Source: Promethearchaeota archaeon
GTDB lineage: Archaea; Asgardarchaeota; Odinarchaeia; Odinarchaeales; JBHLKK01
NCBI GenBank assembly: GCA_048939465.1
Contig: JBHLPL010000033.1
Location: forward strand, 1-18,532
DNA: 18,532 nt
Reading direction: 5' to 3'
Shown: piece by piece, positions 423 to 18,532 of the stretch
Layout: each line of letters begins with the position of its first letter
How positions within the stretch are numbered: position 1 is the stretch's first letter
Program-made: the position numbers and the translations under genes
Notes under the pieces: generated by a model
What the model was told of the DNA's origin: nothing
The model's input: the letters and a program-made list of their open reading frames with translations, nothing else
The model's database searches: none

Positions 423-1400
423 ATGACCGGTAACGCTCGAAATAAGCTTGGAGAACGACTAAGTATTCGGCAATTCGCAAGAGGTGTTGATGAGCCAGAC
501 TGGGTAGAGGTATTAAATGCAGCCTATAAGGAATTCGAACTCTGGTGGAGGGCCACTACCGCGGAGGAGATGTTTCTGCAAGAAAAAAGCCCGACTTATG
601 ACTTTGAAGGACGATTCATCGCTTCGATCAATGAAAAACCAGTGGGGATAGTGCACGCTCATGTTGACAAGTTGAGAAAGGAGAAAAAGGGTTTCATTCA
701 TACTCTCTGTGTTGTCCCAGAGTATCGTGGACTCGGAGTTGAAGAAAAGCTTCTCGAGTTGGCCGTAAATGAACTCAAGAAACGTGGAATGGACTCAGTA
801 CAATCCTGGAGTGATCATAGAAGAAATGATCGCATACAGCTTTTGGAGGCAAACAGCTTCGAAACTGTCCGAACGGAGAGCGATATGGAGATGGATTTGA
901 GCGGCATTCCAACCAATATTGGAGAGAATCTCCAAGTCAACATTTTACCGCTTCAAAAGAACGTCGAGAAAGACATAGAAACGCTCATTTGGCTTTACAA
1001 CGAGTCGTTTAAGGATCACTTCAATTATCGCCCGATAACTATCGGAGAAGTTCGCCATCTTTTGACAGAAGACCCACGCTACACAGAACAAGAATACTTT
1101 TTTGCAGAGATGAACCAAGAGATGGTGGGTTTTGCCGGTTTGGGTATAGACGAAAAATTAAACACTGAGAAGAATATCAAAGTTGGCTTTGTCAACATTT
1201 TGGGGGTTTTAAAATCCTTTAGGAGAAAAGGTATCGGAACCAGACTGATGCTTCATGCCTTGGAAAGGACTAAAGCGAAGGGCATGACCAAGGCCTTGTT
1301 AGATGTAGACGATTTTAACCTAACAGAGGCTAAGAAACTCTACGAAAAAATCGGATTCAAAGTCGTAAAAAAATACCTATTTTGTGAAAAGAGTCTGTGA
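423..1400 (+). CDS. Tandem-domain GNAT acetyltransferase (MshD-like architecture)
   Basis: Two GNAT motif sets: LCVVPEYRGLGVEEKLL and LGVLKSFRRKGIGTRLM...NLTEAKKLYEKIGF. ATG at 423 follows GAGGAGG and is preferred over the 342 start in the ORF track. Confidence 0.88.
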   Translation: MTGNARNKLGERLSIRQFARGVDEPDWVEVLNAAYKEFELWWRATTAEEMFLQEKSPTYDFEGRFIASINEKPVGIVHAHVDKLRKEKKGFIHTLCVVPEYRGLGVEEKLLELAVNELKKRGMDSVQSWSDHRRNDRIQLLEANSFETVRTESDMEMDLSGIPTNIGENLQVNILPLQKNVEKDIETLIWLYNESFKDHFNYRPITIGEVRHLLTEDPRYTEQEYFFAEMNQEMVGFAGLGIDEKLNTEKNIKVGFVNILGVLKSFRRKGIGTRLMLHALERTKAKGMTKALLDVDDFNLTEAKKLYEKIGFKVVKKYLFCEKSL

Positions 1401-1506
1401 AGCAGCGCTTTTGACAGACATTCGATTGTAGACTTTGAAAGTCAAAACCGTGGGGTCAAAGCTGCGGAAACCTCTTTAAGCAGAGCGTGCTATCGTAAGG
1501 TAGGGA

Positions 1507-1887
1507 GTGCAAAAAAACTTGCCCGCAGCCGGCGAAAAGGATCCTTCAAAGCAAATGCTGATTGCCCTAAAGTTCAACGAAAAGATTAACCTGCGGGATT
1601 TGGAAGGTTTAGCTGATTTAATGACTGATGACCACACATTCATTGACAACTTCGGAGAGATCACCAAAGGCAAGGACGCAATGAAAGAGGGCTGGAGGGA
1701 ATTCTTTGAGAAGTATCCGGATTATCGGAACGCATTCACCTGCGTAACGGTTAGAGATAATACTGTTGTTATGACCGGTTATTCTACCTGTTCTCACAAG
1801 CCGCTAAACGGTCCAAGCATATGGACCGCCAGAATTCGTGGGGATCGCGTCTCCGAGTGGAGAGTCTATTGGCTTGACCAGAGGTAA
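1507..1887 (+). CDS. SnoaL-like / NTF2-fold protein
   Basis: FNEKIN..DLEGLADLMTDDHTFID...GKDAMKEGWREFF...IRGDRVSEWRVY matches the SnoaL_2 pattern. Start codon uncertain. Confidence 0.85.
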   Translation: MQKNLPAAGEKDPSKQMLIALKFNEKINLRDLEGLADLMTDDHTFIDNFGEITKGKDAMKEGWREFFEKYPDYRNAFTCVTVRDNTVVMTGYSTCSHKPLNGPSIWTARIRGDRVSEWRVYWLDQR

Positions 1888-1991
1888 TCTCTTCGGATTA
1901 AGAAACTCAGCAGAATACAGTTCTTGTTCACGAACCCGGTCCCGATGGGGTTAGATGATTGCAAGACCGGCTCCTTATTTACAAATACCAA

Positions 1992-3047
1992 TCACTCTGT
2001 CCAGAAATACCACCCATCTGAACTTCTAGCTCCTTTCAGGGTTCCTTTTGTTACCCTTCGGGTCAAAGTAGTGTATATTACACCGCGCTTGCCTTTTATT
2101 GCGATTCCTCTGGCTTCCAATGCTTTCTCCACATCTTCTCTTGTCCTCCTGTTGGGCAGTCTGAAGAACCCTTCTTTGATCAATTTGTCGATTGCTGAGG
2201 CCCAAACTTTGGGAGCACCTTTCCGTTTCTTCTTGAGGGTTTTGACAGCTTCCTTAAAACTTTCCTTGAGGACCTCAAATGGTGATCCCAAGATTTCGAT
2301 TCCTTCCATGTCCCCCTCACCCAATCCCCGCCTCACAAACTCCTGTATCACCGGCATTCTTTCAGGATTCAGGCCTGCAAGAGTAGCTCCCACTGTTTCA
2401 ACGGCAATAGCATCCCTTCCCACCAAAAGAGTATTTGCAGGTACACGTTCGTCACCTGCTTTGAGCCAAAGGTACGTGCCGTCCAGAACGGCAAGATCTA
2501 TTCCTCCTATCTCCTCAAAGACATCCGCAAGGACTGAGGGCAAAATCTCTTCCTTATGGAATTTCGCCTTCTTGGGATCTGGAATACAACCCAGCAGGTT
2601 CTTGAGAATGCTTCCGCTTTGGAACGTACGCAATATGTGTGTGTCTACAAGTACATTAGGTTTGAAGAGCACTTGTGACAGCTCCATCTCCGTTCCTGCT
2701 ATTCTCACCTTCTTTGTATCGGTGTCCGAAGAAAGATTGAAGGGTACTACGCGATCAGAAAAAACCTCTCTCCAAATTTCTAGCCTTTCCGAACCCGTTC
2801 CGCGATAATTGTCTGACTCGACCAGAAAGACCTTTGGAGCATTGGTTAAGCTGTTAACGATTGATTGCACCACGGCAACTGATGTATGATTATCTGCTCG
2901 GTGAGAAAAGACTCCGACTTTAACAGCTACGGATCTCTCCGTAGAGTTCAGATCATCTATCCCTCCAACTAGGCGGAGAGCTTGTGAGAATGACTCTGAT
3001 TCGTTTCCATCAACCTGTACTACAGCGACCTTCGAAGTCAAGAACAC
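1992..3047 (-). CDS. DUF362-family protein with C-terminal winged-helix-like domain
   Basis: KNLLGCIP, AVLDG and LLVGRDAIAVETVGATLAGLNPERMPVIQEFVRRGLGEGD follow the DUF362 pattern. The last ~75 aa are basic and wHTH-like. GGTGAGG SD upstream; the start may be TTG at 3041. Confidence 0.75.
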   Translation of the reverse strand: MFLTSKVAVVQVDGNESESFSQALRLVGGIDDLNSTERSVAVKVGVFSHRADNHTSVAVVQSIVNSLTNAPKVFLVESDNYRGTGSERLEIWREVFSDRVVPFNLSSDTDTKKVRIAGTEMELSQVLFKPNVLVDTHILRTFQSGSILKNLLGCIPDPKKAKFHKEEILPSVLADVFEEIGGIDLAVLDGTYLWLKAGDERVPANTLLVGRDAIAVETVGATLAGLNPERMPVIQEFVRRGLGEGDMEGIEILGSPFEVLKESFKEAVKTLKKKRKGAPKVWASAIDKLIKEGFFRLPNRRTREDVEKALEARGIAIKGKRGVIYTTLTRRVTKGTLKGARSSDGWYFWTE

Positions 3048-3171
3048 ACCTCACCAAAAGCCGAGGAGTTCAATATCAGGGATATGAACGAGGATTATAA
3101 GTACTGTTAAGATTTAAAAGATGCGCTTGCGAATCAAGAATCGTTCATCAATCGCTGCGCAATCTTATGAA

Positions 3172-3795
3172 TTATGAAGATAGTTTCTTCGAGATAATCG
3201 TTAGATTTCTCCCCAGACCTTTTGCCAGCTTCAGCTCATTATCTGACGGCATCCGCTCACCCACGGGGCCTGCAATAGTTGAGGCTCCGTACGGTGAGCC
3301 TCCAGTTATCTCCTCGATTGTCGTTTGCTCCTTGAAAGAGTAGGGCAAGCCAACCAGGACGCAGCCATGATGTAAAAGGGTAATCATTGTTGAGATTATC
3401 GTGGTTTCTTGTCCGCCGTGCTGTGTGGCAGAGCTTGTGAATACTGCTGCTGGTTTGCCAATGAGAGTACCCAGTGCCCAGTCTTCTCCAGTCTGATCCC
3501 AGAAGTTTCTCATCTGGGCACACATATTGCCGTACCGAGTTGGTGTTCCCACAATAATCCCGTCAATTAGTTTAAGATCTTTTCGCGGATCAGCAATTGG
3601 AATATCCCTCATTAGCTCTTTCGCCTTGACCACGTCATCTCCCATGAACTCTTCTGGTATGAGTTCGGCCACTTGTTTTAGAACTGGCTCTCCCCCTGCC
3701 TCTCGAACACCCTCAACTACCCCATTGGCCATTTTGAAAATATGACCATACATGGAATAAAACAGAACGAGAATCTTGGGTCTGTTCTCTTCCAT
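3172..3795 (-). CDS. wrbA: NAD(P)H:quinone oxidoreductase, WrbA-type flavodoxin-like protein
   Basis: LFYSMYGH FMN-binding loop, GTPTRYGNMCAQMRNFWDQTG, HGGQETT and GGSPYGA are diagnostic WrbA motifs. ATG at 3795 is well spaced from GGAGGGAGG. Confidence 0.95.
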   Translation of the reverse strand: MEENRPKILVLFYSMYGHIFKMANGVVEGVREAGGEPVLKQVAELIPEEFMGDDVVKAKELMRDIPIADPRKDLKLIDGIIVGTPTRYGNMCAQMRNFWDQTGEDWALGTLIGKPAAVFTSSATQHGGQETTIISTMITLLHHGCVLVGLPYSFKEQTTIEEITGGSPYGASTIAGPVGERMPSDNELKLAKGLGRNLTIISKKLSS

Positions 3796-3847
3796 TCTCA
3801 ACCTCCCTCCTTATTATTGATTATTCTATTTTTTGATGCTGATTCTT

Positions 3848-3896
3848 TGGTCATTTTCAACATCGCCTGCTTACTGTGAACTGTTGAAAATGGCCA
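3848..3896. promoter_or_regulatory. 15-bp inverted repeat (14/15) upstream of wrbA
   Basis: TGGTCATTTTCAACA (3848-3862), a 19-nt loop, then TGTTGAAAATGGCCA (3882-3896). Function inferred only. Confidence 0.5.
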
Positions 3897-3964
3897 GCTT
3901 TCTGTCGCACGTCCCCTTTCGGCCGATATAAGAAATCTGTTGATGAAGGGGGCCAATCAATAGT

Positions 3965-4198
3965 TCATCCACCACTAATCTCAATAGCGACGACAGGACA
4001 ACTGTCTGCACCTTCTTGTGCACACCCCTTTAGACTTTCATCGACCTCTCCGATGCTGAAATCTTCATTCTGTTCTTTCAGGTAACTGTCTACGATTCTG
4101 GACTTCCCTTCATCGTCTTCCTCATATACCTCGCCGCAAATACTATAACACACGCCACAGGCTATGCACAGATTTCTATCTACCTTAACTGAGACCAT
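3965..4198 (-). CDS. Single-cluster 4Fe-4S ferredoxin
   Basis: CIACGVC (CxxCxxC) plus distal CP (DSCPVVAI); small acidic protein. Confidence 0.93.
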   Translation of the reverse strand: MVSVKVDRNLCIACGVCYSICGEVYEEDDEGKSRIVDSYLKEQNEDFSIGEVDESLKGCAQEGADSCPVVAIEISGG

Positions 4199-4401
4199 TC
4201 TAAGTAATCTCCGGCAAGTTGTTCATTCATACGAGCAGATCATAGCTGGATCTACTTATTCGTTCACTTACCTAGGAGTTCTTCATGATTTCCTACCCAT
4301 TATCCACCTGGATTTCAGGACTCTCATCCCGTCAACGTTATAATGTTATTCTCGGCCGCCTATTTTGCACTGTAATTTGCTTCCAAGTGCCGATATATAA
4401 A

Positions 4402-4416
4402 TATAACGGTGTGATA
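4402..4416. promoter_or_regulatory. Palindromic operator-like site A, TATAAC-GGT-GTGATA
   Basis: One mismatch to TATAAC-N3-GTTATA; abuts a TATA-like element at 4394-4401 (TTTATATA on minus strand). Confidence 0.5.
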
Positions 4417-4483
4417 TTTTGGCTTTTTGATAGGGGCTGTGAAAGACCTCAGTGTGTTAAGATATTAGAACTCTAAGCTTCGA

Positions 4484-4506
4484 AAGGTTTTTATAGGGAA
4501 AACCTT
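4484..4506 (+). promoter_or_regulatory. Hsp20 promoter: AAAGG-TTTTTATA (BRE/TATA-like) inside an 8-bp inverted repeat
   Basis: AAGGTTTT (4484-4491), TATAGGG, AAAACCTT (4499-4506); about 50 bp upstream of the ATG at 4544. Confidence 0.55.
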
Positions 4507-4512
4507 CAAAGA

Positions 4513-4527
4513 TATAACAGTGTTATA
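4513..4527. promoter_or_regulatory. Palindromic operator-like site B, TATAAC-AGT-GTTATA
   Basis: Perfect 6-3-6 palindrome about 18-32 nt downstream of the TATA box, i.e. over the expected transcription start of the Hsp20 gene. Confidence 0.6.
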
Positions 4528-4543
4528 CTCAAGAGGTGTTGTT

Positions 4544-4837
4544 ATGTATAAAGAAAAACCAACGACTTCTCCAGTAGTATGTGTCGACCATGACCATGAA
4601 AAATACTACATTCAGATCGAATTACCTGGAGTAAAGAAGAAAGACATAGATCTGACGGTCGCCGAGCAGGGATTCTGCATCAAGGGCTCCAGGAAGGATG
4701 CCGATCTTTCAGGGTGTTACTTCTTGGTTCACGGTGTAGATCCAGACAAGACCAAAGCTAAGTTTGAAAACGGCTTGCTAGATATTGTTATACCCCTGAA
4801 GAGCCCTCTCATAGGCAAGAAAATCGCAGTGGAGTAA
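4544..4837 (+). CDS. Small heat-shock protein (Hsp20/alpha-crystallin domain only)
   Basis: YYIQIELPGVKKKDIDL and AKFENGLLDIVIP are alpha-crystallin motifs; GAGGTG SD before ATG 4544; 97 aa. Confidence 0.9.
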   Translation: MYKEKPTTSPVVCVDHDHEKYYIQIELPGVKKKDIDLTVAEQGFCIKGSRKDADLSGCYFLVHGVDPDKTKAKFENGLLDIVIPLKSPLIGKKIAVE

Positions 4838-4951
4838 AGGGAGGAATTCGTCACAGGTTAACGGATTTCACGAACTCCACTATTATTTCTTCTCAAGATC
4901 AGGCCTTGGAACGCTTCTAACGGGAACAAAACCGGTATGAAGACCGGACTT

Positions 4952-5494
4952 CTAATATTCTCTCTCTTCGAGCAGTTTTACTAATTTCTTATACTTGTCG
5001 TGAATCATATTTCTGTCAAACTCCCAGAATTCCTCGAGCATATCCTGCTGTTCTTCTTTGCTAAAGTACTTCATGCAAGGGACAAAAAAGTGCTTATCTT
5101 CCTTTTCGATATGTTTCGGATAAAATTCAACCAGCTCCTCTACAAGCGCAGTAATATCTTCAAGGGCATCAAGATTGCCCCTTTCATAGCTCTCCTTTGC
5201 ACCAACCAGCTTACCGACAGTCTTTCTGGCATAAACATGCTCTTCTATCAATTCATCCATGATTTCTCTGTGCTTTGAAGAAAGCTGTTTCTTGCCAAGT
5301 TCTCTGAATAGAATATCTTCTTCCTTACCGTGATGAGTCCTATCGGCATACGTTCTGATGAAGTCGACCGCAACGTCAATGAAATTCAGACTCACCTTGT
5401 TCGTCTCGCCTATTCTTTGTCGCTCCTCCCGCATCAAAGCAATCATGCGCTCAATAAGCCTATGCTCGATCATCAAAGGACCAATTGGCATCAT
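4952..5494 (-). CDS. Hemerythrin-like (HHE cation-binding) domain protein
   Basis: EHRLI, HHGKEEDILF, EEHVYAR and HIEKEDKHFF give the H...HxxxE...H...HxxxE di-iron ligand pattern; GGTGAGG SD. Confidence 0.9.
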   Translation of the reverse strand: MMPIGPLMIEHRLIERMIALMREERQRIGETNKVSLNFIDVAVDFIRTYADRTHHGKEEDILFRELGKKQLSSKHREIMDELIEEHVYARKTVGKLVGAKESYERGNLDALEDITALVEELVEFYPKHIEKEDKHFFVPCMKYFSKEEQQDMLEEFWEFDRNMIHDKYKKLVKLLEEREY

Positions 5495-5691
5495 ATTTAC
5501 GCACCTCACCTTCCTATTTCATGCAGCCGATCCATTTAGAAGATATTCAGATCATAATTTCATTTTCTGGAACACAGAATTCTGAGGGGATGCGTAGGGC
5601 TTCAATTTCAGAACTCATCCAAATCATTTCCACACGCATTCGGAAGCGGAATTCAGGTATGGCATTTTCTCAAGAAGCACACGGAAAAGGC

Positions 5692-5973
5692 CTAATAAGG
5701 CGCAACTCCTCTTCTCTTAACAGCTCTATCATAAAGATACCAGTTGTTGGCCCAGTCTCTGTCTCTCTCAGCCAGTTCTTTTAGGACTAGTTCTTTGATA
5801 CCTGTGGTCTTGGCCGGAAATCTGAGTTCTTTCTCAATACTTTTGGCAATGTCTCTGGCAACGTCGATCGGCGCACCGCATTTTACACAAGAAACAACGA
5901 TTTTTTCCCTAACGAAATCTTCTTCCCGTCCGTCCATCTTAATGACTTTTTTCAGTTTAGCCACCTTCCTCAA
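5692..5973 (-). CDS. Stand-alone ATP-cone domain protein
   Basis: VIKMDGREEDFVREKIVVS matches the ATP-cone start VIKRDGxxExFxxxKI. The start may be GTG at 5964. Confidence 0.82.
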   Translation of the reverse strand: MRKVAKLKKVIKMDGREEDFVREKIVVSCVKCGAPIDVARDIAKSIEKELRFPAKTTGIKELVLKELAERDRDWANNWYLYDRAVKRRGVAPY

Positions 5974-6194
5974 GGCTGATGTCTTCTCTATAATCTTTCT
6001 CCTTAAAAAACCGTTGTTTTAATCAAAGAACGGTAGTTTTGACTTTTCGCTTTGAGAGACCCGAAATCTTTTGAGACTTCTTAAATCTTCACTCTTTGAT
6101 TCTATGTCGGAAGAATCATCTACGTTATACAAAAGGATAAAAGGGGAAGGAGTTCAGAATGGTATCAATTCCAAGCACCACGGAGGTAGAATGA

Positions 6195-7127
6195 TTGGTT
6201 GAGGTTCTTCTCCGAACCGTCATCCCTCTTTTTCTTCTGATCGGGGCAGGCTTCCTTTCAAGAAAAGTGGGAATTCTGAAGGCCGGGGACGAGCGGGTGC
6301 TCAACGCTTACATATACTTTTTTGCGTTACCCGCCCTACTTTTCGTCAATATGGTTGAAACCGAGTTTTTCGGGGATACTTTTACTTTTATACTTGCGGG
6401 GATGACTCCCATTTTTGTGGTGCTGGCGATCTATCTGGTTCTCTTCTTATTATTTAGGTTTCCGAAGGATACTCTTTATCTCCTAATCTTAAGCACCATT
6501 TTCGGTAACGTTGCCTTCTTTGGCATACCTTTCATAATGTTTGCCTTTCCCATTGCGCTGGCGGAGCGTTTGGCGGTATTATCGGTGGTTTCTATTGCTA
6601 TTGTGAGTGTTACGATTTCCATTACAGTTCTCGAACTACGTGAGCATGAAGGAGGTAGTAGATGGGATGGACTGAAGCACGTTGGGAAGAGGCTTTCGAA
6701 AAATCCACTGATCCTATCAATCTTTTTCGGTATTTTGCTATCCCTTGTTGGGGTGGAAATCCCTGCTCCTGTTTCGACTTTTCTGCACATGTTAGGAGGC
6801 AGTACAACGGCAGTAGCCATTTTTATGCTGGGGGTTTTTCTATACGGGAGGAAGTATACGGATAAGGGCAAGGCTTTTGGGCTAAGTCTTTTGAGGCTGA
6901 TACTTCTTCCGGTCATAGCTTCTTTGGCCATAAGCTTGTTCGGTCTGCCAGGTATCGAGATGCCAGTGTTGGTGCTTATGCATAGCATGCCTGTTGCCGT
7001 TTCTATGATAGTTCTCAGCGAGCGCTACAATTTTCATAAGGAGTTAATCGCTTCATTGATATTAATCTCCACGATTGGAGCAATAGTATCTTTAAATGTA
7101 TGGCTTCTGCTATTGGGATACTATTAG
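6195..7127 (+). CDS. AEC-family (auxin efflux carrier / malate permease-like) transporter
   Basis: About 10 hydrophobic segments; FALPALLF, FGNVAFFGIP, KNPLILS and MPVAV motifs; TTG start 8 nt after GGAGG. Confidence 0.9.
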   Translation: MVEVLLRTVIPLFLLIGAGFLSRKVGILKAGDERVLNAYIYFFALPALLFVNMVETEFFGDTFTFILAGMTPIFVVLAIYLVLFLLFRFPKDTLYLLILSTIFGNVAFFGIPFIMFAFPIALAERLAVLSVVSIAIVSVTISITVLELREHEGGSRWDGLKHVGKRLSKNPLILSIFFGILLSLVGVEIPAPVSTFLHMLGGSTTAVAIFMLGVFLYGRKYTDKGKAFGLSLLRLILLPVIASLAISLFGLPGIEMPVLVLMHSMPVAVSMIVLSERYNFHKELIASLILISTIGAIVSLNVWLLLLGYY

Positions 7128-7226
7128 AAAGAGGACAGGAGAGAGTAAATGTAGTGAAACAGTTCCGGCCGATTGGATAACTCACAAGACTGACGCTCTG
7201 TCTCATTCTGGTATAACACAATGTAA

Positions 7227-7234
7227 TTTATATA
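7227..7234 (+). promoter_or_regulatory. TATA box (TTTATATA) upstream of the zinc-ribbon gene
   Basis: Matches the archaeal TATA consensus about 95 bp before ATG 7329. Confidence 0.45.
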
Positions 7235-7328
7235 TGCGGACGTAGATGTGAAAGGAAAACGGATTAAAGAATAGAAAGCGTGAAGAAGAAAGTGAGCCGG
7301 ACAGAGAAAGCGAATCTTATGACAGGAG

Positions 7329-7511
7329 ATGATCGAAGTGAGCAAATGCCCTAAATGCGGACATGTCGTAACAAAACTCAAGGACGTAGTCTATAGAAGA
7401 TCTGGATCTAAATACGTAATTCTGTGTCCAAATGAAAAGTGCAAAGAGGAATACTACGCTACGGAGTGGGTAAATAAGCAATTAGAAAAGCAAAAGGAAT
7501 ATTTCGGTTGA
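7329..7511 (+). CDS. Small zinc-ribbon protein (CxxC...CxxxxC)
   Basis: CPKCGH and CPNEKC; GGAG SD 1-2 nt before ATG 7329 (short spacing); 60 aa. Confidence 0.7.
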   Translation: MIEVSKCPKCGHVVTKLKDVVYRRSGSKYVILCPNEKCKEEYYATEWVNKQLEKQKEYFG

Positions 7512-7649
7512 AAGGTAGCCTGCCCCAAATATGGTCATCCGATGGCGAATCTAACTGACGTGACAGACGAAGATGCCCAATGGATCAATAAGCCACCCAA
7601 ACGAACCGGCAGTCCAAGGAAGCAGAGAACGGATAGCATAAACCCATAA
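7508..7649 (+). pseudogene. Degenerate tandem paralog of the zinc-ribbon gene
   Basis: The frame after the TGA reads KVACPKYGHPMANLTDVTDEDAQWINKPPK..., aligning with SKCPKCGHVVTKLKDV...ATEWVNKQ but lacking the second Cys pair. Confidence 0.45.
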
Positions 7650-7667
7650 AAAGTGGAGCACAGGAAC

Positions 7668-9137
7668 ATGTCAGAGATTAAGCTTCAGAGGAATCTTAGT
7701 CTTTTTGACGTCACAAACTTAGTCATAGGAGGGATAATTGGGGCCGATGTCTATGTGGCCTCATCCTTCGGAGCAGGCCTTCTTGGACCACTTTCGATTT
7801 TGGTGTGGGTCATAGCAGGCCTTATAGCGATAGTTATTGCTCTATCTTTCGCTCAATGCGCTTCTCTACTGCCCAGAGTCGGAGGACCCTACGCCTATGC
7901 TAGAGAGGCTTGGGGGCCGTTTCCAGGTTTTCTTGCAGGTTGGTCGCTTTGGCTTGCCGAGTGGATATCACTGGCTGTATTTCCGGTGGCATTTACACGT
8001 TATCTGATGTTTTTCTTCCCAAATCTTGATTGGGTAGGCCAAACATTTGTCAAAGTGCTCTTTGTTGCATTCCTAGCAACAACGAATATAGTCGGAGTCA
8101 AGACGGCAGGAAGAACAAATGATGTACTTACCATAATAAAGATCGTTCCTCTGATTTTCTTTTCCGGAATTGGAATTATCTTTGTGATTCTGAATCCGGC
8201 TGTGGTAGCATCTAATTTTTCACAGTTCGCACCATTCGGATTGACAAACTTCGGTAGCGCTGTTGTTCTAATATTCTGGGCATATGCAGGATTTGAGATA
8301 TCGACCATTCCTGCAGACGTAATAGACGACCCTGATAGAACTATCCCAAGGGCAATAACTGTCGGGATCTCAATCGTGACTGTTTTCTATTTAACAACGA
8401 ACGTCATACTGTTTGCAGTAAGACCTTGGGCTCAATTGGCTTCAGATTCAGCGCCCCTTGCTTCAGCGACTAGTTTAGTGCTGGCTATACATCCCGCATT
8501 GGCCCTTGTGGGGGCATTAATCGTAGGTGGAGGAGCTTTGATCTCCGTCAGCGGCTCTGACGAATCAGGAATGATTGGTGCATCAAGGCTCGGATATGCG
8601 TTGGCGTTAGACGGCCTTTTTCCTCGAGCCTTTGCCAAAACTCATCCGAGATTCAAAACACCTTACCTGGGAATCATGATTCAAGCGGTCACGGCCCTGA
8701 TTGCTTCCATAGTCGGTACAGTACGTGCTTTAATAGCTACTTCTGTCTTCTTCATGGCATTTGCATATTTGCTTACAGTCGCATCCGTATTCAAACTCCG
8801 CAAGAGAGATCTAAAACCAAAATTCAGACTCAAAGGCGGTCTGATAATTCCGATCTCGGCTTTCATCTTTTCTCTCTATTTACTCTCGCAAGTTACAATA
8901 ACACAACTTGCGATAGGACTGGGATTACTTCTCGTCGGAATACCAATTTATACTAGATTCTCTCCGAAGAAGGAACTAAAAGAGCTCAAGAGAATACTGG
9001 TTTCCACTCCGAATAGATTAAGAAGAGCTTACAGGCAAGAACAGAGGTTTCTAGGCAACATATTTCGTCTGATAAAGAGGTACTACCGAAGAAAGACCGG
9101 CAGGAAGCAGGCCTGGGCTGAAGTCGAAGAACGATAA
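7668..9137 (+). CDS. APC-family amino acid permease
   Basis: LQRNLSLFDV..GGIIGADVY, GGPYAYAREAWG, FWAYAGFE, PDRTIPRAI and SRLGYALALDGLFPRAF...HPRFKTP; about 12 TM segments. Confidence 0.93.
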   Translation: MSEIKLQRNLSLFDVTNLVIGGIIGADVYVASSFGAGLLGPLSILVWVIAGLIAIVIALSFAQCASLLPRVGGPYAYAREAWGPFPGFLAGWSLWLAEWISLAVFPVAFTRYLMFFFPNLDWVGQTFVKVLFVAFLATTNIVGVKTAGRTNDVLTIIKIVPLIFFSGIGIIFVILNPAVVASNFSQFAPFGLTNFGSAVVLIFWAYAGFEISTIPADVIDDPDRTIPRAITVGISIVTVFYLTTNVILFAVRPWAQLASDSAPLASATSLVLAIHPALALVGALIVGGGALISVSGSDESGMIGASRLGYALALDGLFPRAFAKTHPRFKTPYLGIMIQAVTALIASIVGTVRALIATSVFFMAFAYLLTVASVFKLRKRDLKPKFRLKGGLIIPISAFIFSLYLLSQVTITQLAIGLGLLLVGIPIYTRFSPKKELKELKRILVSTPNRLRRAYRQEQRFLGNIFRLIKRYYRRKTGRKQAWAEVEER

Positions 9138-9428
9138 TATCCCTTTGCATTTCAGTCTATCTAAATTCAGACTAATAAATAATCAGCAGAATTAGCGCTA
9201 CCGCTGATGCTATTACTACTGCTATCAGAGGGAACCAGACCTCACATAGTGATTACTTAGCCTAGTGTTTTTGCATTACTTACCTTTCTTTCTCATAGAC
9301 TTTCAGCTGAATCCTGGATGTCGTTGATTTCGGCTTTTGACTTCGAAGAATCTCAGAATGAAGTGTGATTCAGAGAAGTCCTTGATAACTATCAGAAAAG
9401 GAAGGGCGGGGACCAGTTGTCAACGGAA

Positions 9429-10375: not shown

Positions 10376-10444
10376 TATAAATTTTGCTATTACATTAAAA
10401 GAAGCGAGATAAGACTCTCCTTCCTGAACGGATCTTCGGAGGTT

Positions 10445-11203
10445 TTAGAATCCGGATCTGCCCCTGCCCTGAACTACTGCTATGCCATCCTTTCCCACGG
10501 TGAATTCGTGGATTTCCATGCTGTGGGAAGTACCTCTCATTTTCCTTACCATTAGTGTTCTCACAAACGTGTGTTGCCGTTTCTCCAACCCAAGCACTAT
10601 TATGCCATCTGCCACGAATTGCTCTACGTCAAATCTGCTGAGTCTTTCGCTGCCCCCCGGAATCTCCGTCACAACAAAAGACGTGCAGTCAAGCTGAGCT
10701 ACCCCAAAGAAGAAACGTTGAACGTCTCGCCTCAATTCAAAGAGGTTATCATATTGGTACGCAACAGGAACTATCGAATCCAGTACGAATCTCTTGGCCC
10801 CGATTTCTCCTATGACGGTTGATGCCTTATAGAGCAAAGCGTCTATCTCGTTTCTTCTGAGAATGTATTTTTCAGCAGAAGGAGCAGATATTCTGGTGCT
10901 TATCGCGTCCACCATTGCAAGTTTTCCTTCATCTTCTAACTTATCCAAATCCCAGCCAAATGCTGAGAAGTGCCGTTTCAGCTTGCTCGGGGTTTCATCC
11001 ATTGCTATGAATACTCCGGGCTCACCTTGATCCACAATTCCCTTGTAGATGAATTGCATAGCGAATATGGATTTCCCAGTCCCTGTACTCCCTGTAATCA
11101 GGTATGTTCCACCTCTCGGGATTCCACCCTCTAACAGCTCGTCCAATCCCGTTACTCCTGTTGAAACTCTTGAGCTCATTCTCATCTGCGCTTCTTGACT
11201 CAT
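10445..11203 (-). CDS. Single-domain KaiC/RAD55-like (RecA-superfamily) ATPase
   Basis: STGVTGLDELLEGG, Walker A GSTGTGKS, Walker B RFVLDS, ADGIIVL and RKMRGT are hallmarks of the KaiC family; ATG 11203 follows GGTGG. Confidence 0.93.
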   Translation of the reverse strand: MSQEAQMRMSSRVSTGVTGLDELLEGGIPRGGTYLITGSTGTGKSIFAMQFIYKGIVDQGEPGVFIAMDETPSKLKRHFSAFGWDLDKLEDEGKLAMVDAISTRISAPSAEKYILRRNEIDALLYKASTVIGEIGAKRFVLDSIVPVAYQYDNLFELRRDVQRFFFGVAQLDCTSFVVTEIPGGSERLSRFDVEQFVADGIIVLGLEKRQHTFVRTLMVRKMRGTSHSMEIHEFTVGKDGIAVVQGRGRSGF

Positions 11204-11213
11204 TCTTACCACC

Positions 11214-11615
11214 TTAGAACCAACCCTCAATCTTTTTGAAGGTCTTTCCTCCTTTACCTATCCTAACGATTTCTTCGTAGATTCTTGGCAACTCCTTATC
11301 ATAATTCACATCAGTATTACCGTTAAAACACTCTTCCATAATTCGTGGCAACTGCTCTCGATATATGCTAGGAGCCTCCTTATCCTCCAATAAGACTACA
11401 AGGCATTTGTTTATATCAAGCCCCCCGTAGTAACTTGCTGCGTTCAACTTACCCATCTTCAGTGCCACAAAACCTGGGTTTCGGCTTGACAGCGTATGCA
11501 TGCTGTAGATGACCGTAGTTTGATTCTTCTCCAACCGAGTACGCGGCGGGTATACAGCTTCCAAAACAGCCCCTATGTTATTGTCCCACCCAATTATTGC
11601 GATTCCACGAGGCAT
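11214..11615 (-). CDS. Stand-alone longin / uDENN-like domain protein
   Basis: GIAIIGWDNNIGAVLEAVYP resembles the (F/W)DxxxG...YP beta-hairpin of uDENN/NPR2-type longins. The apparent order is beta-beta-alpha-beta-beta-beta-alpha-alpha. GGTGA SD lies 5 nt before ATG 11615 (133 aa). Fold assigned by eye only. Confidence 0.62.
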   Translation of the reverse strand: MPRGIAIIGWDNNIGAVLEAVYPPRTRLEKNQTTVIYSMHTLSSRNPGFVALKMGKLNAASYYGGLDINKCLVVLLEDKEAPSIYREQLPRIMEECFNGNTDVNYDKELPRIYEEIVRIGKGGKTFKKIEGWF

Positions 11616-11660
11616 GCGATTCACCAGCCTATTATCTGCTCGCCGAATATCCTCCATCTT

Positions 11661-11690
11661 CTTATTCTTTAGAGTCTTATTCTTCAGAGC
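11661..11690. repeat. 2 x 15-bp tandem repeat
   Basis: CTTATTCTTTAGAGT / CTTATTCTTCAGAGC (13/15 identical). Confidence 0.6.
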
Positions 11691-12079
11691 CAAAGCGTGC
11701 TGTAATTGCCTTCTTTTTGAAGAAAGCAGGGGGCTTCGAATTCATTCTCGACGGAGTTGTGTTTCAATATATAACAGTAGTGCAAATGATGTAATATATT
11801 TTTCTATGATTCGCGAATGTCCGCTGACTTCATTGTTAACTCTCCAAAAGAGACTGCGATATCCTCACTCTGACGAAGGTGTTGCCTGAAGTTCTTACAT
11901 TCCATAATACGTCAACTTATGGTTCTTTTGCAGGAACGAGTGAAAAAGGCCAACATCCAATATTGTTTTACGAGGAATCAATCACTTGGATGGCATCAAA
12001 TACTCAATCGGTGCGGTATCTTTTTTAATAACTGGTTTTTCATACTAATCGGTATTATCGGCACCCAGGAGAAAACGCC

Positions 12080-12652
12080 ATGAACGTAGAGGAAGCGATC
12101 AGCAAAAGGAGGGCATACCGCTCACTGGAGCCTTTCGAAATAACCGAACAGCTCATTGAGGATCTGGCCAAATCCATTCAACTGGCTCCTTCTTGTTTCA
12201 ACAATCAGCCCTGGAGATTTGTGTTCGTATACGAAGATAAAGCGCTGAAAAAGATGCACACCGCTCTGACTCCAGCCAACAGGTGGGCTAAACACGCGTC
12301 TGTGATTGTTGCCGTTTTCAGCAGAGCAGACTACGATTGTCAGCTTAAGGAGAGGGACTACTTCCTTTTTGATACCGGAATGGCCACGGCATACCTTATA
12401 CTGAGAGCAACTGAGCTGGATTTGGTCGCCCATCCGATAGCAGGCTATAGCGAAGACATCGTGAAGGACATACTTGACATTCCAGAAGACATGAAGGTAA
12501 TCACACTTGTCATCGTCGGAAAGCATTCCAAAGAGATCGCAGACTACCTTTCCGAAAACCAAAAAGAACGCGAAAGGAAAAGGCCGGAGAGACTGCCTTT
12601 GAAAGATTTTGCCTACCTAAACAGATACGGAACAGGCCTCACAATGGGGTGA
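12080..12652 (+). CDS. Nitroreductase family protein
   Basis: AISKRRAYRS, LAPSCFNNQPWRFV, and DTGMATAYLILRATELDLVAHPIAG. Confidence 0.93.
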   Translation: MNVEEAISKRRAYRSLEPFEITEQLIEDLAKSIQLAPSCFNNQPWRFVFVYEDKALKKMHTALTPANRWAKHASVIVAVFSRADYDCQLKERDYFLFDTGMATAYLILRATELDLVAHPIAGYSEDIVKDILDIPEDMKVITLVIVGKHSKEIADYLSENQKERERKRPERLPLKDFAYLNRYGTGLTMG

Positions 12653-12659
12653 TAAGATT

Positions 12660-12875
12660 TTGAGGAAAAGGGACGATGGACAACTGGACGGGGGAAGCCC
12701 CCTGGCTTTTATTGTCCTTTCAATTGTGTTTGTCGCAGCAGGCATCATTCTAATGTGGTTTTTCCTGTTCATAGCAATCATTTCCTTTTTCATAGCCTTC
12801 GTCTGGTTCGTAACAGGATACGCACATTACAGGAGGCTTAAGGAAGAGAAATCACGGGGCCGAACAAGATTCTGA
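12660..12875 (+). CDS. Small membrane protein (about 2 TM helices)
   Basis: Two hydrophobic stretches and a basic tail; TTG start 7 nt after GGGGTGA; fills the gap between co-oriented genes. Confidence 0.65.
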
Positions 12876-12913
12876 CCCCGTCGGAAGAATTGAGAACTTC
12901 GGGAGGACAGGAC

Positions 12914-15019
12914 ATGACCGACAATTCAGCTGAGATTAAGCCTAATCGGTTAATATCTGAAAAGAGTCCTTACCTGCTTCAGCACGCCCGCAATCCTGTC
13001 GACTGGTACCCTTGGAGTCCCGAGGCGTTTGAGAAGGCCAAAAGGGAAGACAGACCAATCTTCCTGTCCATCGGCTACTCAACATGCCACTGGTGTCATG
13101 TCATGGAGAAGGAGTCCTTCGAGGACCGCGAAGTGGCCAGCCTCATGAACGAAGCATTTGTCAACATCAAGGTAGACAGGGAAGAAAGACCAGATCTGGA
13201 CGCGATCTACATGACAGTATGCCAGATGATGACAGGCCGCGGCGGATGGCCTCTTACAATCATTATGACTCCTGACAAGAAGCCCTTCTTTTCAGCGACT
13301 TACATTCCAAAGGAAAGGAAGTTTGGAAGAATCGGGATGAAGGAGCTAATCCCTCACATAAAAGGACTGTGGAAGTCTAAGAGGGATGAGGTGATTGATT
13401 CTGCCGAAAAGATCGTATCTTCTCTGAGAAGAGCAAGAACCGCACTCTCAGTCCAAGAATTGGGAGAAACCACACTATCCTTGGCCTACGAAAGCCTCCA
13501 TATCAGTTTTGATGAAGAGCACGGCGGCTTCAGACACGCCCCGAAGTTCCCAACACCCCACAACCTTACTTTCCTTCTCAGGTACTGGAAGCGGACAGGT
13601 AACGCAAAGGCCCTCGAAATGGTTGAAAAGACCTTAAAGTCTATGCGGCTTGGTGGTATCTATGACCAGATTGGATTTGGATTTCACCGCTACTCGATCG
13701 ACAGAGAATGGCTGGTACCTCATTTCGAAAAGATGCTCTACGATCAGGCCATGCTCACAATGGCCTACACAGAAGCCTACCAGGCCACTGGAAGAGATGA
13801 GTATCAGCAGACGGCTCACGAGATAATTACCTATGTCTTAAGGGACATGACGGATCCGGAAGGTGGTTTCTACTCTGCCGAAGACGCAGACAGCGAAGGA
13901 GAGGAAGGAAAATTCTACCTGTGGACGAGGGAGGAAATCAAAGAACTGCTCACCGAAGAGGAGGGAGACCTCGTAACAAGTGTATACTCTATTGAGGAGG
14001 AAGGCAACTTCTCAGAAGAAGCCACAGGAAGGCTTACAGGCAGAAACATACTTCACCTAAAGAAGCCACTTTCAGAGATTGCCTCCGAACTAAAGATTCC
14101 GCTTGAGAAGCTTGAACAGGTTCTGCGTAAGGCCAGGCGCAAGCTGTTCTCTTTCAGAGAAAAAAGAGTTCATCCCCACAAGGATGACAAGATCTTAACC
14201 GACTGGAACGGGCTCATGATTGTTGCCTTGACAAAGGCAGCGCAGGCCCTAGGCGAGGAGAAGTATCTTGATTCTGCCAAGAAGGCGGCAGACTTCATCC
14301 TCGAAAGATTGAGCGACTCAAAAGGAAGGCTCCTTCACCGATACAGAGAGGGTGAAGCCGACATTCCTGCCTTCATAGATGATTACGCCTTCTTCATCTG
14401 GGGACTTGCTGAGATCTACGAGGCCAGCTTCGAGGTAAAATACCTCAGAAACGCTGTAAGATGCGCCGAGGACATGATAGAGCACTTCTGGGACGATGGA
14501 CCAGGTGGCTTTTACTTCACAGCAGACGATTCCGAAAGCCTGCTTGTTCGAAAGAAGGAGATCTACGACGGAGCGATACCCTCAGGAAATTCTGCAGCGA
14601 TGCTTGTTCTGCTTCGCCTCAGCCGCATGACCGGCAGCACCGATTACGAGGACAAGGCAGCGCAGATCGCGCGCACCTTTTCGGGAAATGTCGCAATGGC
14701 ACCCGAAGCGTACACTCATCTGATGAGTGCTCTGGACTTTGCCGTTGGCCCCTCATATGAGCTGGTTTTGGTCGGAAATTCCGAGGCAGAAGACACGAAA
14801 GCCATGTCAAAAGCTGTCAGAGAAAGGTTCATTCCAAACAAGGTGGTGCTTTTCAGGCCTGCAGACATAGAGTCTCCAGAGATCGCAGAACTCGCAAGTT
14901 TCACCGCTCCCCTATCAACCCTGGGAGGGAAGGCCACAGCGTACGTCTGCAAGAACTACAGATGCGATCTTCCGACAACAAGCATAGAGAAAATGCTGGA
15001 ATTGCTGGATGCCAAGTGA
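12914..15019 (+). CDS. yyaL: Thioredoxin-domain / six-hairpin protein of the YyaL (SSP411/SPATA20, DUF255) family
   Basis: [81 protein letters not shown] and AYVC. Confidence 0.95.
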
Positions 15020-15089
15020 GAGCAGGAAGGGAGAAAAAGGACTTCGACTGAAACCTTATCTTATCTGTTACGGAGCGCAGGGATCTAGC

Positions 15090-15605
15090 ATGGTGAAGCA
15101 AGAAATCTTTGAGGCGTTAAGAACAGTTTATCGAAAACTGAAAGATGAGAAGATCAGATGGGTTTTGATCGGAACTTCAAGCCTGGCTTTCCAGGGAGTG
15201 GATATTGAGGTACAAGATATTGACATCCTCACCGACAGAACTGGTGCGCTTAGGATCGGCGAATTGCTGAAAGAGTATGAGGGCAAGCCGGTGGAATTTG
15301 GGCGTTCTGAGATTTTTGAGTCATATTTTGGAATATTCAGGATAGGGGGGGTGGATGTGGAGATTATGGGAGATCTTAAGGAAAGGATCGGTGGCAGGTG
15401 GGTTTCTACTGTTCAGAGATTGGAGTCCCCGGAGATTGTGCGGATTCAGGGAGTGAAGGTAGCCGTTTCTTCTCTCGGAGAGCAGTTGAGGGCTTATGAA
15501 GGGTTGGGGAGGGAGGGAGATCTGGCTACGATTAGGAAGATAAGGGAATTCTTAGGTCGATGCGAGAAGGAGAGGGGAGTGGGAGGAAGCAGGTTAGGTG
15601 GATAG
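15090..15605 (+). CDS. Pol-beta-superfamily nucleotidyltransferase (LnuA/aminoglycoside-NT-like fold)
   Basis: WVLIGTSSLAFQG...QDIDILT (GS/GT...DxD) and a third acidic strand VDVEIM; ATG 15090 preferred. Confidence 0.8.
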   Translation: MVKQEIFEALRTVYRKLKDEKIRWVLIGTSSLAFQGVDIEVQDIDILTDRTGALRIGELLKEYEGKPVEFGRSEIFESYFGIFRIGGVDVEIMGDLKERIGGRWVSTVQRLESPEIVRIQGVKVAVSSLGEQLRAYEGLGREGDLATIRKIREFLGRCEKERGVGGSRLGG

Positions 15606-16202
15606 CGGGGTGTTTTCGGGCAAAGCGGCTTCGGGTTCTTGAAGATGCGAAGTGAGGAATTGGGGTAAAGGCTAGGTAGTATCAAGGTTTTTAACTCTTG
15701 ATGACAGATTAGTTACTGCAGATGTCCGAGAACCCCTCAGAAGCTGCGGAGTGCGAGGGATCTTTCGTATATGTTGGTTTTTGGAGTTCGTAGTGGGAGG
15801 CGGGGGGTGGAGAGGGGGCCGGGGAGAGGAGGGGGCTAAACTACTTTCGAAATTTGCTGAAAGCTTTTGATCGGAGGTCGAGTTTAGTTCACGGAACCAC
15901 TCCGATCGCCGCGAATTGGACAAAAGGGCCCGTCTGCCGAGACTCTCACACTAGCAGACCAGGAAGAAAGAGCGAGACTATGGAGTTCCCTCACCTGAGC
16001 AGATTTGGCAGTGAGGCTAATCGAGGTTTTCCTATTGCTACGAACAACCAAGCCGCGCTGTTTCCTGCAGTTTGACTTCCACGTTTCAAGCAAAACTATC
16101 CTTCTTTTTCATATCCAGGAGAAATCTGTCTCGATCTCTCGTATCCCTTAAGCTTATTCGGGTCGTCAAAGACTTCAATGGCTTCGAACAATTGATTTAC
16201 TG

Positions 16203-17357
16203 TTAGCTCTCTTTTGAAAAGAGAGTTTTCATGAAATCCGCGAATTCTCTTAGTCTATCTACGTTTATGTATTCGCCTGTTTTGTGGCACACACCGGTTT
16301 GTCCGGGTCCCATTATCACCGTTTTTATACCAGCAACATGATAGAGGTACATCGAATCGGTCCTCCCAACGTTTATCCGTATATCAGGCCTATAGCCGAT
16401 ACTCCGTTGGGCCGAGTCAGCCACAAGTGAGACAACGTATTCGGATTTGTCGGTCTGATACGGTAGCTGGACCCTCGAACCAAAATCCAGATGAAACTTC
16501 ACTTCAGGTTGGAGACTGCGCAAAGCAGATCTTATTGCCTCTTTTATTTGCTCAGGATCTTCACCAGGGAAGACTCTCCTCTCACAGTTTATGAAGCATT
16601 CCCCAGGGATTATTGTCAGCATCCTTCCTCCGTGAATCTCAGCTACATTGATTGGCATTTCAGCTTCGAAGTCATCAATTCTGAATCTGCCTGGAGGTAT
16701 TTCTCTAATCTTTTCTATTACCTTCATCATATGGTAGATGGCGTTAATTCCCGCTTGCGGTGTCGAGGAATGAGCTTCCTTTCCTATGGTTCTGATTCCG
16801 AATCGAACTCTGCCAGTACATCCAACGCTAATTGAGAATTGATTATCTTCTACAGTTGGCTCAACGTTTATCCCATAGTCTGCCGAAAAATCGGGATTTT
16901 TTGAGAGAAAGTATGGCATTCCCAGTCTTCTTTCTCCTTGATACTCTACGGAGTTGTCTTCATAGTTGACAAACTGGATGATCAGTTTTTCAAATCTGCA
17001 GTCTTCCAATTCGTACAGTGCAGATAGCGTTGAGGCTATGCCGCCCTTGGCGTCCGAAGAACCTACAGCGTATAACCTTTCCCCCTCAATCTTAGGAACC
17101 AGAGCATCCTTCCATTCAGCAGAAGGAGGAACTGTATCAAAATGAGTGTTTACAAGAAATGTTCCGTTTCCGTCAAATCTTCTCTCTGCCGTTACAGAGT
17201 ATAATTCGTCTACTGCCACCTTGAAGCCAAGGTTCTCAAGATGCTTTGACAGGAACTCAGAACATTCTTTCATGCCTTCAGCAATCTTGTCTGATTCAAC
17301 CTGAAATGAAGGGAATACTACAAGGTCCTTAAGAATATGCAGCGGATCTGTTTTCAT
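16203..17357 (-). CDS. M20-family metallopeptidase / deacylase (ArgE/DapE-like)
   Basis: THFDTVP, GSSDAKGG, EPT, GKEAHSS.P..GINAI, IIPGEC, TD, and GPG...H...EYI. Confidence 0.92.
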   Translation of the reverse strand: MKTDPLHILKDLVVFPSFQVESDKIAEGMKECSEFLSKHLENLGFKVAVDELYSVTAERRFDGNGTFLVNTHFDTVPPSAEWKDALVPKIEGERLYAVGSSDAKGGIASTLSALYELEDCRFEKLIIQFVNYEDNSVEYQGERRLGMPYFLSKNPDFSADYGINVEPTVEDNQFSISVGCTGRVRFGIRTIGKEAHSSTPQAGINAIYHMMKVIEKIREIPPGRFRIDDFEAEMPINVAEIHGGRMLTIIPGECFINCERRVFPGEDPEQIKEAIRSALRSLQPEVKFHLDFGSRVQLPYQTDKSEYVVSLVADSAQRSIGYRPDIRINVGRTDSMYLYHVAGIKTVIMGPGQTGVCHKTGEYINVDRLREFADFMKTLFSKES

Positions 17358-17478
17358 GCTTATCCCTTATTTTAAAGATATGAGGGTAGATTTAAGTCTT
17401 GTTTCTTCAAATTGATTTTGGCCGCACTCTCTTCAAAAGAACCATATTCACGACTGAATAATCTGAACATGAATACGG

Positions 17479-18531
17479 TTAGATTTTGTCAAAAGCTTGT
17501 CCCAGATCAGAGATAATATCTTGTGGATCTTCAATTCCTAAAGCTAGACGTACGAGCTGATTGGTGATTCCCGCCCTCATTCGGCTCTCCTCATCAACAA
17601 AGTAGTGAGAAGAGGTAACGGGCTGTGTAGCCAGCGTCTCGGTTCCTCCCAAACTGGGAGCCAGCAAACACAACTCTAAGCTCTCAACAAATTTCATTGT
17701 TTTTTCAAAATCCCCATCAATTTCAAAACTAACGACCCCGCCAAAGCCCTTCATCTGCTGAACCGCAATTGAATGGTCAGGATGGTTTAGGAGCCCCGGG
17801 TAATACACTTTTTTTACCTTAGGATGTTTTTCAAGATATTCTGCCACCTGCATACCGCTAGAATTGTGTCTTTCCATTCGCAGACCAAGAGTTTTAAGTC
17901 CCCTTAACAGTAACCAGCCAGCTATTGGATCAAGGGTTCCGCCCAAATGTTTTCGCATCTCTTTCAGCTTTTGAGTAAAGCCTGCCGAGCCCACAACTAT
18001 TCCAGCCGTCAAATCATTGTGCCCTCCCAGGTATTTTGTTGCGCTATGAATGACAACATCAACGCCAAATCGTATGGGTCTCAGGTTATAGGGAGAAGCA
18101 AAAGTATTGTCAACTGCAACTGTTATGCCTTTCTCTTTGCCCAGCCTGGCAACTTCAGACACATCCAAATATCTCAGCGTCGGATTGGTAAGAGTCTCAG
18201 CATAGATGAGTCTGGTATTCTGCTTGATGGCCGATTCCACTTCACTAGAGTCCGTAGCTTCCACCAGACTCACATCTATTCCAAATCGTGGAAGAATATC
18301 CGTAAAGAGCTTTAGAGTTCCCCCGTATAAGTCTCTGCTAGAAACGATATGGTCACCTGAAGAAACCGCAGTCAATACTACGCCAGTTATGGCTGCCATA
18401 CCTGAGGAAAAAACTGCAGCATCTTCACCTTCTTCGAGTTCTGCCATTTTCCTCTCAACAGACCTGAGAGTTGGGTTATCGAACCTGGTATATACGTATC
18501 CTTCTGCTCTTCTGCTCATTACATCAATCAG
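17479..18531 (-). CDS. PLP-dependent trans-sulfuration enzyme (cystathionine gamma-synthase/lyase family; 5'-truncated)
   Basis: YTRFDNPT, FSSGMAAI, YGGT, ETLTNP, DNTF, HSATKYLGGH (PLP lysine) and SLGG. The frame stays open to the window edge (LIDVMSRR). Confidence 0.93.
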   Translation of the reverse strand: MIDVMSRRAEGYVYTRFDNPTLRSVERKMAELEEGEDAAVFSSGMAAITGVVLTAVSSGDHIVSSRDLYGGTLKLFTDILPRFGIDVSLVEATDSSEVESAIKQNTRLIYAETLTNPTLRYLDVSEVARLGKEKGITVAVDNTFASPYNLRPIRFGVDVVIHSATKYLGGHNDLTAGIVVGSAGFTQKLKEMRKHLGGTLDPIAGWLLLRGLKTLGLRMERHNSSGMQVAEYLEKHPKVKKVYYPGLLNHPDHSIAVQQMKGFGGVVSFEIDGDFEKTMKFVESLELCLLAPSLGGTETLATQPVTSSHYFVDEESRMRAGITNQLVRLALGIEDPQDIISDLGQAFDKI

Positions 18532-18532
18532 C

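Follow-up and report, generated by a model that had tools for sequence, protein, structure and literature searches.

A longin-domain protein and a KaiC-like ATPase form a mobile gene pair in Odinarchaeales with a candidate link to small-GTPase signalling

Longin domains of the NPRL2 type are abundant in Asgard archaea and are tied there to prokaryotic signalling domains and small GTPases (bioRxiv 10.1101/2020.10.19.343400; PMC10933270), and dimers of longin or roadblock domains are well established as platforms on which small GTPases act (PMC10933270). Gene order, however, rarely allows Asgard GTPases to be matched to their regulators (Tran et al. 2024, PMC10933270). Archaeal KaiC-like ATPases have been proposed to act as signalling hubs (Makarova, Galperin and Koonin 2017, as cited in PMC5847659), and the CI domain of cyanobacterial KaiC has a ring to which KaiB and SasA bind and supplies a finger of its own, R226 (PMC12208873, PMC9171630); KaiA, the known exchange factor of KaiC, works through the A-loop of CII. 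The longin and the KaiC of the locus described here are each of these known kinds. A literature search returned no paper on a KaiC-longin pairing, the partner list of the 2017 hub proposal lying outside that search, and nothing that joined KaiC and Asgard with either a longin or a small GTPase; the word “KaiC” does not occur in the bioRxiv study cited above, and the one paper found on Odinarchaeum together with KaiC concerns a virus.

The window (the whole 18,532-nucleotide stretch of DNA analysed, contig JBHLPL010000033.1) carries on its reverse strand a stand-alone longin gene of the NPRL2/C9orf72 (uDENN-like) type (11214..11615, 133 aa), followed by the gene of a single-domain, CI-like ATPase of the KaiC family (10445..11203, 252 aa). 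The longin ORF starts at ATG 11615 behind a GGTGA Shine-Dalgarno sequence, both of which are kept in the orthologue L001, and ends with the TAA at 11216-11214; GGTGG, the Shine-Dalgarno sequence of the ATPase, follows directly, as it does in L001, and the KaiC ATG lies at 11203. The sequence-only reading had described a 133-aa ORF with a WDNNIG...YP hairpin ending at 11214 and a GGTGG right behind its stop in a 10-bp gap; W10-D11-N-N-I-G15 ... Y22-P23 are indeed present, and the gap (11204..11213, reverse strand) is exactly 10 bp long. Longer starts at TTG 11693 and TTG 11230 were rejected, as the Shine-Dalgarno sequences and the homologues fit ATG 11615 and ATG 11203 instead. The gap measures 8-12 bp in all 13 loci measured except one with 50 bp, and the two genes may be translationally coupled. 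Upstream of the longin gene, a non-coding part (11616..11925, reverse strand) contains AT-rich, TATA-like boxes near 11770-11800 that could serve as a promoter. An independent contig from a mangrove run (5.3 kb), which covers this whole region with 18 substitutions and no gaps, has the same gene order, so the layout does not stem from misassembly. Elsewhere, the window (1-9400 and 12080-18532) holds what appear to be ordinary housekeeping and stress genes, identified partly by Pfam and partly by eye: GNAT acetyltransferases, flavodoxin/WrbA, ferredoxin, Hsp20, a hemerythrin-like protein, a stand-alone ATP-cone, permeases, a rhodanese, a nitroreductase, a thioredoxin-domain protein, an M20 peptidase and a Cys/Met PLP enzyme.

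Judged by its AF2 model (built with 102 homologues; pLDDT 89.9), the 133-aa protein is an NPRL2/C9orf72-type longin domain and not a DENN module. Its secondary structure follows the longin order (E-E-H-E-E-E-H-H) and, unlike that of roadblock, has no N-terminal helix. The best structural match in VIA was a Loki longin (8yqg; Z 11.6, rmsd 3.0, 124 aligned), equalled by 8fw5_B (Z 11.6, rmsd 3.5, 126 aligned), a GATOR1 chain of 362 aa that is presumably NPRL2 by its length; the SEA complex, FLCN, Lst4 and C9orf72-SMCR8 came next. Longins matched at full length with Z 11.6-8, and roadblocks lower, with Z 7.1-7.6 over ~95 aligned residues, so that the longin/uDENN fold first suggested from the letters, together with the structural comparison against NPRL2, C9orf72 and roadblock proposed for it, came out on the side of longin. 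Structure-atlas searches agree with this ranking (TM 0.74 to NPRL2 clusters, from one source), and almost all top rows of Foldseek were longin, roadblock or profilin folds, none of them at E <= 0.001. Pfam and NCBIfam hold no family for the protein, no longin or DENN family of Pfam was found among its 102 homologues, and a PDB sequence search with the longin profile gave only noise. The tripartite uDENN-cDENN-dDENN module is absent, since the ORF stops after 133 aa and is followed by the KaiC gene.

Residues of note in this longin are the W10-D11...G15 hairpin, P23, H40 and S61-Y-Y-x-G65. The hairpin has the spacing of C9orf72 W33-D34...G38, a motif of GAP longins (PMC12290439), the match being one of spacing and not of structural superposition. 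The GP motif of GAP longins, located before beta2, reads G15-A16 in the window, and the proline is present in 6 of 13 KaiC-linked orthologues. As for an arginine finger beside the GP motif, the KaiC-linked longins have no invariant Arg; basic residues conserved in their clade, and so possible candidates, are K70 (12/13, vs 2/88 in other members) and R45 (10/13). Any GAP activity of the window longin is thus hypothetical; candidate partners for a longin-longin heterodimer acting on a small GTPase would be the C78 longin-wHTH protein and the L002 GTPase.

The ATPase matches PF06745 with E 2e-71 (240 bits vs a cut-off of 26.6). Walker A (G38-K44), Walker B (D142), D69-E70 in place of the usual EE pair and the K221-M-R223-G finger all occur as the sequence-only reading had listed them. 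The closest solved structures are KaiC CI and PH0186 (2zts, E 1e-58). As in a CI domain, Q195 and F196 occupy the positions of CII S431 and T432; a KaiC-type phosphorylation cycle is therefore not expected, and the autophosphorylation assay proposed earlier lacks its canonical target. The protein does not belong to the circadian KaiC family, having one domain of 252 aa and no tandem CI-CII (TIGR02655, 150 bits vs a cut-off of 546), and in NCBIfam it scores 35-44 bits against FlaH/ArlH (cut-offs 194-215) and 17-18 bits against archaeal RadA/RadB (cut-offs 259-278), missing the threshold of each named KaiC, FlaH or Rad family; this genome has its RadA- and RadB-like genes on C73. The EE-to-DE change is fixed in the longin-linked KaiC clade (13/13, vs 1/10 in others), and the residues invariant only in this clade gather on two helices, 119-132 and 149-170, with large-to-small changes at A128 and G167, which could provide a docking groove. 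Its motifs make the ATPase a candidate archaeal KaiC-like hub, which would hydrolyse ATP, form a hexamer and bind partners. The same genome (G000) also contains a Walker-A-dead KaiC placed tail-to-tail, 5 bp apart, with a Rab-like GTPase (C4:22629-23878), and further Walker-A-dead KaiC paralogues on C62 and C96 (two).

GTDB groups the host genome in one order with four that were deposited under Odinarchaeia/Odinarchaeota, among them Ca. Odinarchaeum yellowstonii (1,418,269-bp chromosome; G003), which bears out the Asgard-related host that the letters alone had suggested. A congener, G001 (L074, JBHLKK010000056.1), was deposited as “Candidatus Hodarchaeota” and is nevertheless placed in the Odinarchaeum order; the deposited label may be wrong. 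Among 400 Asgard genomes, KaiC matches of >=60% occur only in the seven genomes of this order, and the next matches (<=45%) lie mostly beside Lrp-like HTH or other genes, without a longin of this family. The longin family itself is large in Asgard archaea (29 of 41 genomes, with six copies in this genome), most of its members forming the N-terminus of ~360-aa proteins. Homologues of ~370 aa were considered as longin-KaiC fusions and rejected, as their C-terminal parts have no KaiC match.

The longin and the KaiC are adjacent, one to one, in all 14 distinct loci examined, and among the 400 Asgard genomes only in Odinarchaeales. In Odinarchaeum (G003), the two genes occupy C1:1265837-1266220 and C1:1265088-1265795. 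Because it recurs in 14 distinct loci, the adjacency is more than chance, and the conserved two-gene unit supposed from the window does exist in other genomes. The DE-type KaiCs form one clade (support 100/99, 15 rows), as do the short, tailed longins from the same loci (100/100, 15 rows). The two trees have matching A and Odinarchaeum subclades, and the B clade is left unresolved in that of the KaiCs; as adjacent genes share their history by linkage, this congruence is no proof of co-evolution.

Over the constant pair, the upstream gene varies among three contexts: a longin-wHTH gene in 11 loci, a Rab-like GTPase gene in two, and neither in the window. In type A, which includes C78 of this genome and all Odinarchaeum genomes, the upstream gene encodes a longin-wHTH protein of 336-377 aa, whose C-terminal 110 aa are modelled poorly (pLDDT < 50) and have no atlas hit, and whose longin type does not align by profile with the short longin. 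Type B comprises L001 and L002, the nearest relatives of the window copy (longin identity 77% and 67%, respectively), in which the gene immediately upstream, in the same orientation, encodes a Ras/Rab-family GTPase (PF00071, E 3e-41 and 4e-17). The two GTPases are 80% identical and group with an Odinarchaeum GTPase; in Odinarchaeum, their nearest relative is encoded far from the pair. This arrangement is known from two short metagenomic contigs (1.0 and 2.0 kb), which are close kin, so the GTPase neighbourhood counts as one event. An orthologue of the GTPase was not found in G000-G002 (91, 78 and 82% complete), the best match in G000 reaching 42%. Elsewhere in the longin family, members of ~360 aa immediately precede longin-GTPase fusions in genomes of Jordarchaeia and Baldrarchaeia (L063-L081, L086), and short members lie ~650 bp from Rab-like GTPase genes in two other genomes. 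The suggestion that the longin is coupled to the ATPase “instead of a small GTPase” is therefore not supported: the absence of a GTPase gene is a property of the derived window copy and not of the longin-KaiC system. Judging from these neighbourhoods, the pair probably does not stand in for a GTPase but connects the ATPase with GTPase signalling.

What the window holds is this genome's second copy of the two-gene unit, a transplanted one, the paralogous trio being on C78. In the congener G001, the spacer between the divergent rhodanese and nitroreductase genes is 225 bp long and lacks the pair, whereas in the window an insert of ~1.5 kb (approximately 10405..11925) holds it; because the pair occupies a site that is empty in G001, the longin and the KaiC moved together. 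Apart from a weak ~20-bp similarity at the edges, the insert bears neither repeats nor a mobile-element signature, and a tblastn search with the L001/L002 GTPases and the longin-wHTH proteins found no remnant of either gene on the window contig. As the window longin groups with L001 within type B (support 95/87), loss of the GTPase gene is the simplest history. Both genes are under purifying selection (dN/dS 0.14 for the longin vs L001, 0.08 for the KaiC vs L002). Three further observations concern this copy and its surroundings. At its C-terminus, the window KaiC is extended by eight Gly/Arg-rich residues (10445-10470) that occur in none of the orthologues, probably because a stop was lost on insertion. 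Fifteen of the 18 differences from the mangrove strain over 3.3 kb fall within 65 bp of the longin gene (11492-11556), are mostly synonymous with four amino-acid changes, and cluster at P < 1e-5 by shuffling; this tract looks recombined, with a divergent allele of type B as its source; the C78 paralogue, at only 55-58% identity, was rejected as a donor by gene conversion. In Odinarchaeum yellowstonii, the rhodanese orthologue matches in two pieces (G003 C1:162661-163520), possibly owing to a frameshift.

The reading preferred here, tentatively, is that the longin acts on the KaiC ring as an adaptor that depends on the nucleotide state and couples the ring to longin and GTPase partners; it was chosen because it fits the behaviour of KaiC CI and of longin dimers and all three gene contexts. 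By analogy with KaiC CI, the KaiC would form a ring that hydrolyses ATP slowly and unaided, would not run a phosphorylation cycle, and would report the ATP/ADP state. The longin would dock on this ring through its C-terminal amphipathic helix in a nucleotide-dependent manner, and its body would keep the ordinary dimer/GTPase-platform surface, making it an adaptor. The state of the KaiC would then be passed to a third partner, namely the longin-wHTH protein at the ancestral locus and, at the duplicated (B) locus, the Rab-like GTPase. On this view, the DE-type KaiC and its longin would constitute a dedicated pair, inherited and moved as a unit, of which the window copy would be a B-type representative that entered its new location by itself, its GTPase gene having been lost. 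Since it is still under purifying selection, it presumably acts in trans on partners encoded elsewhere, for which the 18 Ras-family matches of this genome and the paralogous trio are potential candidates.

It is unlikely that the longin acts directly on the ATPase, as an exchange factor, activator or inhibitor, in a closed two-protein switch that has no GTPase, as the sequence-only reading had supposed. Such a switch would suit a pair that is the only invariant part of the loci, that has no adjacent GTPase in 12 of the 14, and that was retained alone in the insert under selection; moreover, the clade in which DE has become fixed for EE is precisely the longin-linked one, and the change could make activity dependent on a partner. 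However, the gene run of the nearest orthologues includes a GTPase, GTPases also neighbour the wider longin family, the KaiC keeps its own K221/R223 finger and needs none in trans, and exchange of the KaiA type requires the CII A-loop, which a CI-like ATPase lacks.

In the adaptor reading, contact with the KaiC would fall to the longin tail (last ~13 aa; 11217..11255, reverse strand). The KaiC-linked short longins end in an amphipathic hydrophobic-x-K-hydrophobic-x-x-aromatic-F (hydrophobic moment 0.55-0.91), with the terminal F133 present in 13/13 vs 2/88 other members. The type-A longin-wHTH proteins share this end in the same register, with an invariant Trp and a conserved acidic residue inside the motif. 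The pLDDT of the longin model falls to 65/47 over the last 13 aa, so the tail is probably unpacked on the longin core; it is likewise poorly packed in the longin-wHTH model. When the C-termini of 1723 ORFs of this genome were scored against tails from other genomes only, the window longin ranked 2-8 against longin-wHTH tails and the C78 longin-wHTH protein ranked 4-9 against short-longin tails, both varying with the length of tail scored, and the C78 short longin ranked lower, 12-56, against longin-wHTH tails; as the likeness had been noticed before it was tested, these ranks serve as a lead only. The tail is absent from longins unlinked to KaiC and from the natural KaiC::longin-wHTH fusion (C10 of G000), which fits the prediction for a docking motif. 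The shared tail is thus a candidate helix for KaiC docking or for membrane attachment. It is tempting, though doubtful, to go further and regard this short helix as a shared docking code that plugs different longins into one KaiC ring, with the ATP/ADP state of the KaiC gating the access of the longin platform to a Rab-like GTPase. That the tail is a membrane-targeting sequence of the MinD/FtsA type, anchoring the complex while any contact with KaiC uses another surface, seems rather improbable. Its amphipathic character and aromatic end, the poor packing in both models and a net charge over the last 26 residues of +1 to +8 in the stand-alone longins would all suit a membrane, where longins often function (PMC10933270), but the tail follows KaiC linkage and not longin type, the longin-wHTH tails bear their acidic residue within the motif, and the window tail is poorer in basic residues than those of L001/L002 (+2 vs +7/+8).

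The longin-wHTH gene, present in 11 of the 14 loci, raises the prospect of a transcriptional switch formed by the ancestral trio KaiC - longin - longin-wHTH, in which the window copy, under a different promoter and among redox/sulfur-stress genes, would serve as an additional input to the same wHTH protein or as a paralogue that titrates it. A related Asgard KaiC clade does lie beside Lrp/AsnC-like HTH genes, and the insert does lie between rhodanese and nitroreductase genes; the latter are, however, an insertion site and not conserved partners, the B-type orthologues have a GTPase gene and no wHTH gene, and DNA binding by the wHTH part is putative, the wHTH domains of NPRL2/NPRL3 being scaffolding. 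This possibility is accordingly held to be remote.

KaiC and longin genes are also joined outside the DE clade. In G000 (C10:20921-22408; L026/L122) and G001 (C1:74546-75979), a divergent KaiC, a longin of another type than that of the window and a wHTH-like end are fused, an arrangement found only in this genus among the 400 genomes; the gene after the fusion resembles the gene after an unfused longin-wHTH paralogue. In another family, L116 (G017 C1:2336400-2338700) and L118 (G027) show a run of longin, thioredoxin-like protein (CxxC), KaiC and small GTPase, in which the longin is of the window's family and the KaiC belongs to a different clade (FEQ motif). KaiC and longin genes have thus become linked on at least three occasions, two of them involving a GTPase as well. 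The notion that the two genes are mere co-regulated neighbours whose products do not touch, with the window copy a redundant paralogue left by passive co-duplication, would be allowed by the restriction to one taxonomic order, for which one origin of linkage explains all loci, and by the long branch of the window longin (0.23 vs 0.05 for L001) with loss of the conserved K21, but is very improbable given that the adjacency outlived two context changes, that both genes moved together without their neighbours, that dN/dS is 0.08-0.25, and that the linkage arose separately at least two more times, once as a fusion.

For Asgard longin partners and the control of small GTPases, the unit offers small, soluble, expressible candidates (133 aa and 252 aa), with the Rab-like GTPase (partial sequence) and the 13-residue tail as further ones. 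All the evidence is computational and the pair has been found in a single order, which is not known to be the Asgard branch closest to eukaryotes. If the adaptor reading is true, the archaeal KaiC network would be tied to the fold of NPRL2, FLCN and C9orf72, and the docking code, if real, would let archaeal energy sensing feed directly into a GTPase switch of the eukaryotic type.

Compared with known systems, the window longin shares the fold of the eukaryotic longin GAP complexes (GATOR1 NPRL2-NPRL3, FLCN-FNIP and C9orf72-SMCR8; Z 9.3-11.6; PMC12290439), as well as the WD...G spacing, the GP of 6/13 orthologues and, in the ancestral locus, a second longin type next door. By contrast, it consists of one 133-aa domain, lacks DENN and wHTH parts, has GA instead of GP and no clearly placed arginine finger, and is both tailed and linked to KaiC. 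The ATPase has the same RecA-fold domain, full catalytic set and small neighbour gene as the archaeal single-domain KaiC-like ATPases (PH0186, 2zts; PH0284, 2dr3; SSO2452, 2w0m), but differs in its DE pair, its helices 119-132/149-170 and its longin partner. Its RFDVEQFVAD resembles the RYGVEEFVSD of cyanobacterial KaiC CI, whose binding of partners on the ring is the working analogy; unlike KaiC with its KaiB, SasA and KaiA, it has no CII, S431/T432, A-loop or adjacent KaiB, and it is not a clock. The Asgard NPRL2-like longins (PDB 8yqg), to be set beside the Roadblock/Rab/DENN operon, are of the same kind, and the truncated, tailed subfamily was found only in Odinarchaeales. What is new at the window locus is the GTPase-bearing B type, the empty site that reveals joint travel of the two genes, and the shared tail.
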